A DNA stretch of 64,000 nucleotides from Escherichia coli. Its GTDB lineage: Bacteria > Pseudomonadota > Gammaproteobacteria > Enterobacterales > Enterobacteriaceae. Position numbers: made by a program. The stretch is from assembly GCF_003790525.1 (NCBI RefSeq), contig NZ_CP033635.1; one strand, given 5' to 3'. Of the stretch, positions 31,201 through 43,200 are shown piece by piece. Position 1 is the stretch's first letter. Every line of letters begins with the position of its first letter.

Positions 31201-34200
31201 TCATCTCACGCAGTTTATCCATCTCTTGCGGCAGAACATCCGCAGGATGAGCGCGAGGTGGAACATCAGGATCGCTGTAGTAGTTGCCGCCCAGTTCACG
31301 TTGCAGCACATAATCGGCAAATCCGCTAATCAGTTCCCGCGTATTTGGCGCGCGAAAACCTACGGAATAGTTCATCGCATTTTCCAGCGCGTAGCCTTCA
31401 TGCGGGAATCCTGGCGGAATATAAAGAATATCGCCAGGCTCCAGCTCTTCATCGATGATGGCTTCGAACGGATCGACCTGTAACAGATCCGGGTGCGGGC
31501 AGTGCTGTTTCATTTGCAGCTTTTCGCCCACTCGCCAGCGACGACGTCCGGTACCCTGAATGATAAACACGTCGTACTGATCGAGATGCGGGCCGACGCC
31601 GCCGCCTGGTACAGAAAAAGAGATCATCAGATCATCAATACGCCAGTCCGGTAGTTCACGGAACGGTCGCATTAGCGCGGCGGTCGGCTCATGCCAGTGG
31701 TTCACTGCTTGCACTAACAATGACCAGTTAGTTTCACCGAGATGATCGTAGCTTTCGAATGGACCGTGGCTGACCTGCCATTTGCCATCCTGATGACTGA
31801 CCAGTCGACTGTCGACTTCGCTTTCCATCGCCAGACCCGCCAACTCGTCTGGAGAGATCGGGTCAATAAAATTATTAAAGCCGCGTTTTAACACCACCGG
31901 GCGTTTCTGCCAGTGACGTTCAAGAAAATCGGGCCAGTTAAGAGTGAGTTGGTATTCCATGTTAAGCATCCACAGGCTGGTATCTGCAACCGATTATAAC
32001 GGATGCTTAACGTAATGCGTGAAGTATGGACATACTTTATCAATTAGTGTTTTTTGCCGTTTCATAATGTTTCAGGTTGTGCATTATGTTTTTGATTATA
32101 AACAAATTTGTGATTTTTCTTGTTCCAGCTTGTTTCACGTTGTAGCCCTTTGTGCAACGATCGGTGTAGTTAATGGTGTAGTTAATTGTGATGACCGGAT
32201 TCAAAATTATGAGCAGAGCACTTAACAAGCTGAGCGATACACAGCTAAGGAAAATCAACGGCACACCCGCCCAAAAAACAGCCTTTCTTAATGACGGTGG
32301 AAACTTGAGCGTCAGGCATTCAACCAGCGGCCTTTTAACCTGGTATTTCACTTACAGGGCCGGAACGGGAAGGGGGGCATCACCGGAACGCATTAAGCTG
32401 GGAAATTATCCTGATCTGAGCCTGAAATCAGCCAGGGAAAAAGCCGCCCAGTGTCGCGCATGGCTGGCTGAGGGGAAAAATCCACGTCATGAGATGAATT
32501 ACACCGTACAGGAAGCGTTAAAGCCTGTAACGGTTGGCGATGCGCTCACCTACTGGCTTGAGTCGTACGCAAAGGAAAACCGTGTGGATTATGACCCACT
32601 GAAAAAGCGGCTAAATAATCACGTAATACAGCACATTGGCCCTATGCCGCTGGATAAATGCGAGCTACGGCACTGGCTGGCCTGTTTTGATCGGGTGGCA
32701 AAGCAAGCCCCTGTTTCCGCCGGGTTCCTGCTACAGACATGCAAACAGGCGCTTAAGTTCTGCCGGAAGCGGCGCTATGCAATCAGCAACGTTCTTGATG
32801 ATATGAGTGTGGCTGACGTTGGGAAAAAACCGGATATAGGCGAACGTGTCTTAAGCACCAAAGAACTGGGCCAATTATTGCAGGCACTGGACAAAAAAAT
32901 ATTTTCCCCTTACTACGTCGCACTAATCCGCCTCCTGATTGTCTTCGGATGCCGGACAGTAGAACTGAGGCTATCGGAGATCGGGGAGTGGGATTTTACC
33001 GAAATGCTCTGGACCGTTCCGAAGGAGCACAGCAAAACGAAGGTAGCCATATTCCGGCCCATACCGGAAGCGATACTGCCGTTCGTCACGCAGCTGGTGG
33101 AGCAGAACAGGCACACGGACTTATTGCTGGGGGAAGTGAAACAGGAAACCAGCGTGTCGCAGTACGGCAGATTAGTGCACAGGAGGCTTAAACACCCTCA
33201 CTGGTCACTGCATGACATCCGGCGCACCTTTACAACGATGCTGAACGATTTAGGCGTGGATCCTCACGTCGTGGAGCAGCTTACAGGCCACCAGATGCCA
33301 GGAATGCAGCGAGTTTATAATCATTCCCGTTATCTGGATGCGAAACGCAATGCGCTGGATATGTGGGTGGAGCGGTTGGAGATACTGGCGGGAGCACATG
33401 AAAACGTAACCACGCTACCAGTAGCCAGAAGAAAATAATTTTTTTCGTGTTTTTTCAGTATGCGCATACTGGATAAGTGCACAGATACAACGTGCAACAA
33501 TACACAACAACGTGAAACAACCACGAACAAGAGGTCAAAAAGTATACAGATTTATAAGTTGCTGATTTTTAATGCTCAACTGGTTTTTTATACATTAGCG
33601 AATAACGCTTTAAATAGTGAGAAAAAAGGCATAAAACGAGATTTTATGCCTTTGCATAATACTGAATTAAAATGATTTTTATTAAAATCACCCCGTTTCT
33701 GTAAAATACCCGCCACCAACATTTGCCAACTCTGAATCACCCTGACACAATCAGACACATCCCAACGCAATAGAACACGAAATAACTCTTTAAGAAACGA
33801 AAGGGGGCAATAGTGTTAAGCACTGATCGCTTTATACGTGAAAAAGAATGCGAAAAGCTAACAGGCCTTAGCCGCTCATGCCGCTACCGCCTGGAAAAGG
33901 CCGGACAATTCCCATCACGGCGTAAGCTGGGCGGTCGTTCCGTTGGCTGGTCTTTATCCGAAGTTCTGGCATGGAAGGAAAGCTGCGAGGCAGTTCACTA
34001 AAAAGACTGGCGGCACACAGCCGCCACCCATCCACTAATACAGAGATTTAACCATGAAGACTGGATATACGCCCGAACAGGGGCGGGGCTTCGTTCGGCC
34101 TGGTGAAACTGAAAAACAACAAAATCGCGGTTTTTCAGACATAAAAAAAGCGGCCCCGATAAGGAGCCGCCTTTCTGAACAATTTACCTGCCGCGCAAAA

Positions 34201-40200: not shown

Positions 40201-43200
40201 CATTAAGGGAATGATTACCCCGCCGAAATCACAGGCAAAAAACACCATTACAGGCTACCAGGAGCGCATTAATGGCATTAAAGAAATTTTTAGCATGTTC
40301 GGCAACCAGTACGACGGGATCAAAATGTCGTGCCTTGAAGATGCATCCTGTACGCTGGAAATGGCCCGGGAACGTCTGCTTAACGAAATGGGTAAAAACC
40401 ACACACCAACAAATAAAAATATCCCGTCTCATATTTATGCCGGAAACGGGAACATAACAGGCGATGCGATTCGCCAGGGCCTTTATTCTCGTCTTGGGTA
40501 TGAGCGTTCTGAGCGTGGCAATCCTTACGCGATGATGAGCCTTTTTGAAATGGCCCAGGCGTCACTGGTTGATCGCGGTATCAGTGTTGGCGGTTTTTTA
40601 AATCGCTCGCAGGTCGTTAATGCAGCTTTTACACACAGCAGCAGTGATTTTTCTCATATTCTGGCTGGCGGTGCTGAAAAATCAGTGCTGAAAGGCTGGC
40701 AGGACAGCGGTGAAACGTTCCAGAAGTGGACGCGTAGCGGTTCACTTTCAAACTTTCATGAAGCAAAGCGCGTTGGTCTGAATGGATTTTCAAAGCTGGA
40801 TAAAGTGCCGGAAGGCGCCGAATACAAATACATCACCACCAGCGATAAAGGTGTGCCTATTGCGCTGGCAACATACGGGAATATTTTTTCTGTTACCCGC
40901 CAGGCCATTATTAACGATGACCTGACCCAGTTAACTACAATCCCCATGGCGATGGGGCGTGCAGCCGCCAGAACAGTAGGTAATCTGGTGTATCTCCTGT
41001 TAACCGGCAATGGCAAATTCACGGATGGTAAGGCGCTATTCCATGCCGATCATAAAAATCTTATTGCGAAGGATATGGACATGGAGGGGCTTAACGAAGC
41101 CCGTAAGCTGATGCGCCTCCAGGAGGACGCTAACGGCGATTCGCTGAATATTACCCCTGCATTTGTCCTGGTCCCCGCCGCGCTGGAGTCTGCCGCACAT
41201 CGCGCCATTCTGTCATCGTCATCACTCTTTCCGGTTGATAGTGAGGGCACTATCAATCAGAACCCCGGCATCATTAACGTGGTGAAAGATATGGCTGAGG
41301 TTATTGTTGAGCCACGTCTTGATAAGAACAATAACAAAGAGTGGTATGTAGCCGCAGCGAAGGGGATGGACACGATAGAGGTCGCTTATCTTGATGGTAT
41401 TGATACGCCATATCTTGAGGAACAGGAGGGCTTTACTGTTGATGGTGTCGCCTGGAAGGTGCGCATAGATGCAGGTGTTGCAGCTCTCGATTATCGTGGA
41501 CTACTGAAATCGAGTGGAGCATGACAACAAGGGCGGCGATAGCCGCCTTTTTTTACGGGTCCTCCCGGTGGAGTGACCTGCCACGGGGCGGGAGCGTCGC
41601 GGAAAACGGCTGATTTTTGAATTTTCATGGGACACCACCACATCAATTAACATGCTGAAAAGTAAAATAAAAATTGATTTTCACCTGTCCCATTTTACTT
41701 TTTGTGGGACATCTGACCAGTTTTTAACATTATGTTTTTAAAGAGAAAAATGATATTCGAGCTGGAGAACGATGCTGGTAGATAGTTAGTGATGAACAAA
41801 AAACAAGCAAAATCGACACCATAAAAATAAAACACATTGAATATCAATTTGTTGCAGTAGTGGTGATGACGAATAAAATTTCAAAAACTAGCCGTTTTCC
41901 GCGACGCTCCCGCCCCGTGGCAGGGCACCCCACAAGGAGGACCCGCCATCACTATGGAGGACATGACCATGACCGAGACCGAAGCGCTCGGGATAATCCG
42001 CAGTATTACCGGAATCAGCCAGCAGGCTGGCGAACAGGAGGCCACGCAGCCGGACAGCGTGATCGCCGAAAATTACGTGCGTGTTGTTGCTGATGTAATG
42101 CGCCGTGATGGTATTGAGCTTAACGGCGTGGATATGCGCGACATACGAATCAGAGTACTAGAGTTGCTGGCATACCGTCGACGCGTGGCGATGTATCAGG
42201 AGAGCGCGAAAAACACTTATCAGTGGAAGAAGCCGGAACGGTTGCGTACGTAATACGTACGGACATCGAGACAAAGACGGTTTAACCATCCATTAAAAAT
42301 CGACGTGATTTTGTGCTTTCCGGATGACGTGGCCAACGTCATTTTTTAGCGAAAAATTCTGATTAAGGTCATTGGCTTAATGGTCATAATGACCACTCCT
42401 ACAGAACAGGTAAAGCCCACCAGCCTGATAATTGCGCTGGCTGGCAAAGTGCAAAATTGCACGATGGCCTAACCCATTGATTATTTCGAAAACCTGCAAT
42501 GCAGGAAATCGGGGAAGTAAGCCTAAGCTATTGATTCTTTCGGAAACCTCAATTTGAGGAAGTCGGCGCGGTAACTCGCTGATATTCCCGATAACGCAAA
42601 ATTGCGTTGGCTGGTTGGCGAGTTGCAGATCTGCAACTCGACCATGAAACTACGGAAACTACCCGTAGTTTGGGTAGTAAGAGTAACACCCAGATTTTGG
42701 GGCTTACTCGTGATACCCAAATTTGGAGTATCGGTGGCAACCATAACGACTTTCGTTACGGTTGATGCTTTTACCCCATTGGGGGAAAGGTATTACGATA
42801 ATCATAACACCTACCGAACAGGTAAAGCCCACCAGCCTGATTGACATTTAACCGGAAAAAAAGCCAGGTAGCCCCGTTATGTGGATCCCCATATCGACAG
42901 CAACGCCCCCTTAAAATTACCCGCCTTTATATTTCTTGTGCCTATTTGTTCCACGTTGTTTCATACAGTGCGCCGAACGGTGTAGTTAATGGTGTAGTTA
43001 ATTTGCGATTTTTGGCACTTTTGTTTGTGTATATTTTTAATTAAATCAATACATTAACTAATATCGGTGATAAAAGGACATATTTATTCATCTTTCGGCG
43101 CAGAATGCTGGCGACCAAAAATCACCTCCATCCGCGCACCGCCCAGCATGCTCTCTCCGGCGACGATTTTACCCTCATATTGCTCGGTGATTTCGCGGGC

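Follow-up and report, generated by a model that had tools for sequence, protein, structure and literature searches.

A phage-satellite island between roxA and phoQ of Escherichia coli probably belongs to the EcCICFT073 lineage and joins its backbone to a different cos and capsid module

Introduction

Among the phage-inducible chromosomal islands (PICIs) of Gram-negative bacteria, the described element closest to the locus reported here is EcCICFT073, which has its own pri-rep-ori, two functional cos (cohesive-end) sites, a capsid protein (c1499) and a head-decoration protein (c1500) (PMC6092414). Lambda or phi80 can package it, in capsids of phage size (PMC6092414), and in this island the Rpp protein binds the helper small terminase and redirects packaging to the island cos (PMC6739421). 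Capsid genes are common in the group, with 21 of 29 reference elements from Gram-negative bacteria having a major capsid gene (PMC10111431). The PICI model of SatelliteFinder comprises an integrase, a regulator, a pri-rep gene, capsid morphogenesis and the small-terminase gene terS, forbids portal/connector genes and classes elements with four of these five components as Type B (PMC10085698). Here we analysed a 64-kb stretch of Escherichia coli DNA (GCF_003790525.1, contig NZ_CP033635.1; hereafter, the window) in which an 11-kb island separates roxA from phoQ. The comparisons presented below make it very probable that this island is a Gram-negative PICI of the EcCICFT073 lineage, inserted at the site that the lineage itself uses, just 3' of phoQ. 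What is particular to it is the combination found in its late module; the family, the site and the occurrence of capsid genes in PICIs were already known.

Results

The island compared with EcCICFT073 and other satellites

The open reading frames (ORFs) of the island were identified by PHROGs, Pfam and NCBIfam profile scans and by protein identities to EcCICFT073 and to the island of strain GF60. The integrase lies at the left end and the genes run rightward except for one YlcI/YnfO-like gene on the minus strand, as in EcCICFT073. The backbone genes on which the comparison rests are the following.

32209..33438, plus strand: tyrosine integrase (Int), 409 amino acids (aa) from ATG (phrog_1, E = 1e-72)
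33813..34001, plus strand: alpA, AlpA-family regulator/excisionase, 62 aa (phrog_2790, E = 1.3e-17)
36075..37481, plus strand: RepA-type replication ATPase/helicase, 468 aa, AAA_25 domain (Pfam AAA_25, E = 5.8e-42; phrog_2850, E = 3.8e-188)
37482..37671, no strand: predicted replication origin, two sets of AAAGTGAG(T) iterons (six in all) on either side of an AT-rich stretch, directly 3' of repA
38294..38704, plus strand: Ssb, single-stranded DNA-binding protein (phrog_44, TIGR00621)

The island and EcCICFT073 share the roxA-phoQ site, the doubled GGTGTAGTTAAT arm motifs described below and a size of about 11 kb. They also share their gene order: int, alpA, a ylcI-like gene on the minus strand, an icd-like gene, small genes, a DUF4222 gene, rep, the origin iterons, small genes, ssb, perC, a small gene, the capsid gene, cos(+)/cos(-) and a terminal gene of 94 codons. 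Protein identities reached 94.6% for Int, 95% for AlpA, 97% for Ssb, 91% for the 80-aa protein (orf80), 75% for the DUF4222 protein and 73% for the terminal 94-aa protein. The two elements differ in the remaining modules. EcCICFT073 has a primase whereas the window island has the RepA-type AAA_25 helicase, and the lambda E-like capsid protein, D-like decoration protein and c1501 of EcCICFT073 contrast with a ClpP/capsid fusion and a small gene, orf69, in the window. In addition, the window island lacks RppA and has, upstream of its capsid gene, one more cos, of the helper type.

The closest relative in a complete genome was the GF60 island, which occupies the same site and is 96-99% identical in nucleotide (nt) sequence over int, alpA and the repA-to-perC segment; its RepA is 99.8% identical. 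GF60 differs by a lambda-type capsid, decoration and Nu1-type terS module. Specifically, the window diverges from GF60 at 39018 and realigns from 41556, the replaced segment comprising the extra cos (cos1), orf69 and the fusion gene. As judged by homology, RepA is one of the alternative pri-rep alleles found in E. coli PICIs, and the two-set iteron layout of the origin is that described for Gram-negative PICIs (PMC6092414).

Other characters agree with a PICI: size, an att (attachment) site, one-way genes, AlpA, an initiator with an iteron origin, cos, and no tail, lysis, portal or large-terminase (TerL) gene. By manual homology, four of the five core components of SatelliteFinder were present (int, alpA, RepA and capsid) and terS was absent; this absence is not disqualifying, because the model admits elements with four of five as Type B (PMC10085698). 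Among the island ORFs, PHROGs and NCBIfam scans gave no match to the Psu, Sid, Delta or Ash families of P4-like satellites. As far as P4 biology is known, int, alpA and the Icd-like gene are the only island genes that would have a counterpart in P4. Capsid-forming PICIs (cf-PICIs) have a related int, alpA and rep backbone and their own capsid protein and protease (bioRxiv 10.1101/2022.09.08.507074; PMC10085698), but they also encode TerL, TerS, a portal and a head-tail connector/adaptor, of which the window island has none.

The helper-embedded PICI of EC42405 shares with the island an orf69-fusion cassette that is 99% identical, and in the island as in helper-embedded PICIs a doubled arm motif sits about 80 bp upstream and 130 bp downstream of the crossover. 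The EC42405 element differs in lying in a helper late gene, in its integrase, in its motif (TGTATTGC instead of GGTGTAGTTAAT) and in having kept a DUF1441 gene; the window island, between roxA and phoQ, is chromosomal and not helper-embedded. SaPIbov5, with its capsid protein Ccm, resembles the island in carrying the cos of its helper and a homologue of the helper major capsid protein without a terminase of its own (PMC5052747, PMC8569155), and differs in being Gram-positive, in its Stl-type control and in its unrelated sequences.

A first-pass annotation of this DNA had read it as a helper-dependent, satellite-like integrative island, neither P4-like nor a cf-PICI since the P4 hallmarks and the cf-PICI portal/terminase set are absent, and this interpretation was right. 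Its inventory (alpA, overlapping small genes, a RecA-fold Rep with 3' iterons, ssb, a PerC-like gene and a ClpP/HK97-capsid fusion) agreed with the profile scans, and its near-uniform strand holds apart from the minus-strand gene at 34326-34505. It had also concluded that the gene set fits no canonical family, because it was compared only with P4 and cf-PICIs. The site, the gene order and the Int, AlpA and Ssb proteins shared with EcCICFT073 contradict that conclusion.

Boundaries and attachment arms

The left and right junctions and their arms contain the following elements.

32028..32034, plus strand: attL identity block GGACATA, left junction, from comparison with the K-12-like empty site and the second-site island
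32163..32186, plus strand: left-arm doubled 12-mer, GGTGTAGTTAAT x2, starting 129 bp inside the crossover block
42979..43002, plus strand: right-arm doubled 12-mer, GGTGTAGTTAAT x2, ending 79 bp before the crossover block
43076..43082, plus strand: attR identity block GGACATA, right junction, just 3' of the phoQ stop codon at 43084

K-12-like genomes have roxA next to phoQ with nothing inserted, as had been expected from K-12, and so do about 4826 of the 5426 complete E. coli genomes (approximately 89%). The perfect 26-bp direct repeat at 32162-32187 and 42978-43003 was likewise confirmed, with int adjoining its left copy. The repeats had been taken as the ends of a 10,842-bp island, yet they lie inside it. 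When the K-12-like empty site was aligned with both junctions, the crossover fell in the 7-bp block GGACATA, the first island base was 32035 (CTTTATCAATTAGTG...) and the insert between the junctions measured 11,048 bp. Empty sites lack the 26-mer together with about 130 bp to its left and 75 bp to its right, and no record in E. coli genomes covered at least 80% of a reconstructed roxA-phoQ site with a single 26-mer. The empty alleles that the first-pass annotation had proposed to look for exist, but without the single core copy expected in them. The 26-bp repeat was rejected as the att core on these grounds: there is no single-copy site, it is absent from empty sites and it moves with the island.

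Each 26-bp repeat is made up of a doubled 12-mer, GGTGTAGTTAAT, present four times in the window and only at these two repeats (0.17 copies expected by chance). The doublet occurs with the same spacing in the islands of CFT073, GF60, O157 and A1_181. The A1_181 island lies at cspD-clpS and has the doublet at both ends, 129 bp from the crossover on the int side and 79-80 bp on the far side; its crossover block differs from GGACATA although the doublet spacing is the same. In helper-embedded PICIs, a doubled motif lying, with respect to the attP centre, 81 +/- 2 bp upstream and 132 +/- 2 bp downstream was proposed to bind the integrase's arm domains (PMC10111431). Because the geometry is parallel, the doubled GGTGTAGTTAAT motifs are probably integrase arm-type binding sites. 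The doubled arm motif (about -80/+130 bp), which had been reported as unique to helper-embedded PICIs, would therefore be matched, in another sequence, in ordinary chromosomal PICIs as well.

TTGTTC-rich elements were also present in both att arms (32118-32143 and 42933-42960), and a further one lies between int and alpA.

33507..33532, no strand: TTGTTC-rich 26-nt element between int and alpA, inverted repeat I3

This copy is an inverted match of 32118-32143 (88% complementary over 26 nt), and related TTGTTCG repeats are found in the arms of the A1_181 island. These elements are candidates for the sites where AlpA, or a different recombination directionality (excision) factor, binds.

The capsid fusion and its partner orf69

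The segment that distinguishes the island from GF60, and the region following it, contain the features below.

39011..39260, plus strand: cos1, helper-type cosN and full cosB with TTTTCACCTG repeats (Tritos/cdtI alignment)
39402..39611, plus strand: orf69, small protein, ribbon-helix-helix-like by eye (phrog_4934; alignment with Klebsiella/Serratia PICI homologues)
39608..41524, plus strand: fusion of a ClpP-like prohead protease and a major capsid protein, 638 aa (Pfam CLP_protease and Phage_capsid_4; NCBIfam NF045540, 907 bits)
41549..41641, plus strand: cos2, conserved cosN with a divergent cosB side (repeat and cos alignment)
41642..41859, no strand: spacer between cos2 and cos3, 218 bp, without a small-terminase-like gene
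41860..41945, minus strand: cos3, inverted cosN copy, 86% complementary to cos2

Phages of the Tritos/mEp460/cdtI type combine a DUF1441 small terminase with a fused protease-capsid protein. The island fusion was 56-57% identical by tblastn, and about 60% by global alignment, to the homologues of Tritos, mEp460, mEp043, HannyBb and the VT1-Sakai type. Relative to the helper protein, the PICI fusion has 28 residues fewer in the linker between protease and capsid, presumed to be the scaffold, and seven more near the C-terminus. Two motifs that by eye contain the catalytic Ser and His, AASMAS and IHKP, are intact. In EC42405, the PICI with the 99.2% identical fusion cassette lies within the large-terminase gene of a prophage, and this prophage has a capsid fusion 99.6% identical to that of Tritos.

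The fusion gene was found in 183 of 5426 genomes at a coverage of at least 80%. Copies 93-99% identical in aa sequence occur in PICIs at roxA-phoQ, cspD-clpS, tRNA-Pro/yejO, pntB and the prophage terL gene. Homologues of 635-641 aa with 71-79% identity were widespread in Klebsiella, Serratia, Pectobacterium, Dickeya, Yersinia and other genera, and in the two non-Escherichia cases inspected (Klebsiella and Serratia) they belonged to PICIs at the fis site. Altogether, identity within the PICI fusion lineage, which spans Enterobacterales, is 71-99%, against 57-60% to phages, and the ratio of nonsynonymous to synonymous substitution rates (dN/dS) among PICI copies across genera is 0.07-0.12, indicating purifying selection. 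The fusion and the small gene upstream of it make up an old, selected and satellite-specific lineage, and the dN/dS ratios and the retained catalytic motifs are evidence for a functional protein.

The stop codon of orf69 overlaps the start of the fusion gene, and a partner of 59-75 aa, likewise ribbon-helix-helix-like by eye and overlapping the fusion start with its end, is always located directly upstream of the fusion in Escherichia, Klebsiella and Serratia PICIs (L003, 14410-14619; L005, 9761-9988; L011, 9810-10004; L013, 9825-10004; L numbers are our designations of individual loci). In the helper phages inspected orf69 is lacking and the portal gene precedes the fusion. The product had no Pfam match. 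It was considered as a gpW-like head-tail joining protein and as the equivalent of the pre-capsid gene of EcCICFT073, and both identifications were discarded since similarity and Pfam matches were lacking.

The cos sites and the space between them

The three cos-like sites had been missed by the first-pass annotation. Cos1, with a left cohesive end predicted at about 39048, is 91% identical in nt sequence to bases 1-204 of Tritos and 90% identical to phage cdtI, the match spanning the cohesive end, cosB and the first codons of the phage DUF1441 small-terminase gene. Capsid type and cos type co-vary, both pointing to Tritos/mEp460/cdtI-like helpers instead of lambda or phi80.

Cos2 and cos3 form an 86-nt inverted repeat around the 218-bp spacer, and the inverted cos that immediately precedes the last gene of EcCICFT073, GF60, O157 and MSHS 133 is the equivalent of cos3. 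The spacer is reversed with respect to the window in the islands L016, L018 and L019 and colinear in L017; since these islands are nearly identical, the opposite orientations indicate that the segment between the inverted cos copies flips. The 82-nt repeats of this region (two direct, one inverted) were also considered as a P4-like RNA immunity system; Rfam gave no match and the repeats are the cos sites.

The relatives have, before the terminal 94-aa gene, a cos(+), a small-terminase-like gene and usually an inverted cos(-). The gene is RppA in EcCICFT073, of the Nu1 type in GF60, O157 and MSHS 133, and a DUF1441 gene in A1_181, EC42405 and Z1323. At the cspD-clpS site, the same fusion is accompanied by a Nu1-type gene in MSHS 133 (L010, 9212-12423) and by DUF1441 in A1_181 (L003, 14616-17556). 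From this distribution, the genes between the cos copies appear to be exchangeable cassettes. In the Klebsiella-type PICI at the fis site, the capsid fusion is followed by 810 aa of a tail tape-measure protein of the lambda type, a fragment (L011/L012, 12186-14618) that occupies the place of the small-terminase-like gene of the E. coli relatives. Searched by sequence, the PICI DUF1441 protein had no match in the PDB, so homology to RppC was unsupported.

As the first-pass annotation had stated, terminase, portal, tail and lysis genes are missing: none was found in the PHROGs and NCBIfam scans of the island ORFs, and Tritos TerL and portal proteins had no tblastn match across the window. Given the missing redirecting gene, the island probably relies on cos1. 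As this site carries the cosN and cosB of the helper, no redirecting protein should be needed for its recognition by the helper small terminase, a situation known from cos-type S. aureus pathogenicity islands (SaPIs; PMC5052747).

A second site and spread among draft genomes

The identical fusion protein was located by exact-sequence look-up in draft-genome contigs, and at least 23 contigs encode it with 100% identity. In the places shown for this set, six of six had the layout without a small-terminase-like gene, at two chromosomal sites. The island copies L016-L019 were 96.5-97.8% identical in nt sequence to the window over the int region, and L017 is colinear with the window with 99.84% nt identity over 7 kb. 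The second site is beside pntB, where the homology of a near-identical island starts at window base 32034/32035 and the crossover block is ATAACAGCA instead of GGACATA. Between the pntB-site and the window island only the last 25 nt or so of the right arm differ (window 43057-43082); the pntB-site junction regions in L016/L017 are at about 1536-1661 and 12359-12415.

These sequences suggest that site specificity was switched with little integrase change between the roxA-phoQ and pntB copies, one type of element using different crossover blocks at different chromosomal sites. The island looks mobile: its layout is present at two sites, which argues for recent mobility, and the roxA-phoQ site is unoccupied in about 89% of E. 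coli genomes. At roxA-phoQ of strain Z1323PEC0011 (L015) there is only a truncated integrase pseudogene; occupants of this site can therefore decay in place.

Remaining genes of the island

The other genes and the non-coding right end are as follows.

34326..34505, minus strand: YlcI/YnfO-like gene, 59 aa (phrog_949, E = 2.7e-19; 61% to the YlcI/YnfO protein of EcCICFT073)
34693..34890, plus strand: Icd-like small protein, 65 aa (NCBIfam NF033153, 64.9 bits, cutoff 25)
34883..35712 (about 34883-35251, 35241-35480 and 35446-35712), plus strand: overlapping small genes, from profiles and homologues
35791..36078, plus strand: DUF4222 small protein (phrog_285; homologue annotation)
37728..38297, plus strand: conserved small genes, 107 aa and 80 aa (phrog_27268, phrog_1231)
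38715..38987, plus strand: PerC-family regulator, 90 aa (phrog_994, phrog_10396)
41969..42253 (ORF opens at 41954), plus strand: conserved terminal gene, 94 aa (phrog_1561, E = 3.2e-49)
42254..42978, no strand: non-coding right end of about 720 bp, without a convincing gene, with two 44-nt direct repeats

The integrase ORF opens at a GTG at 32188, and the 409-aa integrases of the sister islands L016-L019 match Arm-DNA-bind_3 and Phage_integrase of Pfam. A 278-aa ORF at 34054-34890 was discarded as spurious except for its Icd-like C-terminal part. The ORFs at 35241-35480 and 35446-35712, of 79 and 88 aa, are the N- and C-terminal halves of phrog_2512, a gene that is a single ORF of 151-154 aa in GF60 (151 aa) and O157 and two ORFs in EcCICFT073; the split reflects a frameshift or else a different gene structure. 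The 107-aa and 80-aa proteins are 97% and 96% identical to those of GF60, and the terminal 94-aa protein, which had no Pfam match, is 100% identical. The 90-aa product at the position of the PerC gene in the sister islands also matches PerC of Pfam, and PerC-like genes are common accessory cargo of Gram-negative PICIs (PMC11773190). PADLOC detected no defence cargo among the small ORFs. At the right end, the 44-nt direct repeats (42386-42429 and 42798-42841) are 412 bp apart and each contains a minus-strand Chi site, and a 48-nt stretch (about 42519-42566) is 94-96% identical to a portion of the roi/antirepressor gene of HK620, CUS-3 and Stx phages. This non-coding stretch is probably a remnant of accessory cargo.

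Chi sites

The island (32028-43082, 11 kb) has 10 Chi sites (GCTGGTGG), compared with 12 in the other 53 kb of the window. The PICIs examined (L001, L002, L003, L004, L005, L009, L011 and L013) have 10-12 Chi sites per 11 kb or so, and in them, as in the window island, Chi is enriched about four-fold over local density. We found no published description of Chi enrichment in PICIs in the literature. In the Klebsiella and Serratia PICIs nearly all Chi sites are on the coding strand. A polarity about cos1 was tried and rejected: nine of the ten sites face the cos1 ends in the window island, but the pattern fails in the other PICIs examined. The enrichment could protect linear or concatemeric satellite DNA from RecBCD.

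Discussion

A life cycle for the island can be drawn by homology with EcCICFT073 as regards induction, excision and packaging. A lambdoid helper phage would switch on alpA, and AlpA would drive the rightward operon. Int, together with AlpA, would excise the 11,048-bp element at GGACATA with the doubled GGTGTAGTTAAT motifs as arm sites, and RepA, Ssb and the iteron origin would replicate it. The helper terminase would then cut the element at the cos sites and package it into helper-built virions.

Several observations weigh against assigning the island to the EcCICFT073 lineage as a working PICI. RppA, Nu1-type and DUF1441 genes were all absent from the window by tblastn, so the packaging-redirection function of a PICI has no candidate here, and helper packaging and head genes (DUF1441, Nu1-type, TerL and portal) had no tblastn match in the whole 64 kb. 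Among the 5426 complete E. coli genomes, none had the layout without a small-terminase-like gene; EcCICFT073 requires Rpp to be transferred efficiently (PMC6739421); phrog_2512, one ORF in GF60, is split here; and deletion of the capsid gene of EcCICFT073 left transfer and interference unaffected (PMC6092414). The main rival explanation builds on the first three of these last points: the island would be a decaying PICI that lost its Rpp or small-terminase-like gene between cos2 and cos3, transfers poorly or not at all and persists mostly as a vertical remnant. That most E. coli relatives inspected, of the fusion type and the lambda type, keep a DUF1441, Nu1-type or Rpp gene where only about 218 bp remain here speaks for it, as does the truncated int remnant at the same site in Z1323PEC0011. 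We nevertheless regard decay as unlikely. The identical fusion in at least 23 contigs and the same layout at two sites among the places shown argue for recent mobility; the int, alpA, repA, ssb and fusion genes have kept their full length; and cos1 has the complete helper cosN and cosB, so that a redirecting protein is not strictly needed. Moreover, DUF1441 is likewise missing from the Klebsiella fusion PICI and is represented in that of Serratia only by a 74-aa ORF.

Two further explanations start from the late genes. With P4 hallmarks and the cf-PICI portal/terminase set absent, and a capsid gene present without a small terminase, the island could be taken for a minimal capsid-encoding satellite of an undescribed family apart from P4-like elements, PICIs and cf-PICIs. 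The comparison refutes this reading, which we consider very improbable: the island shares its att site, Int, AlpA, Ssb, gene order and origin layout with EcCICFT073, Gram-negative PICIs typically carry capsid genes (PMC10111431, PMC10085698), and the fusion cassette is common to catalogued PICIs, including helper-embedded and fis-site ones. Still less credible is decay from a cf-PICI, or from a lambdoid prophage now defective, through loss of the portal, terminase and tail genes. A lambdoid head module is clearly the source of cos1 and the fusion, as such an origin would require, but the cassette of cos, orf69 and fusion, with neither portal nor terminase, is conserved at five or more att sites and in several genera and evolves under purifying selection, the fusions of PICIs are a lineage of their own (71-99% within, 57-60% to phages) and no portal, TerL or tail remnants were found. 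Altogether, these results support a PICI of the EcCICFT073 lineage.

Within that reading, the role of the fusion is unproven, because the capsid gene of EcCICFT073 is dispensable (PMC6092414). Redirection of capsid size has been demonstrated for Ccm of SaPIbov5 (PMC8569155) and for no E. coli PICI capsid gene, and it is a possible functional analogy for the fusion. A more specific proposal, that orf69 and the short-form fusion are a satellite-adapted capsid module that forms satellite-sized heads or poisons helper heads while using the portal and terminase of the helper, is speculative and on balance doubtful. If true, the module would parallel SaPIbov5 Ccm on the Gram-negative side and mark an intermediate between classical PICIs and cf-PICIs, and the island would need only cos1 and the small terminase of the helper itself. 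More generally, the comparison of the roxA-phoQ island with its relatives suggests that the EcCICFT073 backbone swaps its late module to suit a different helper lineage, with capsid and cos types changing together.

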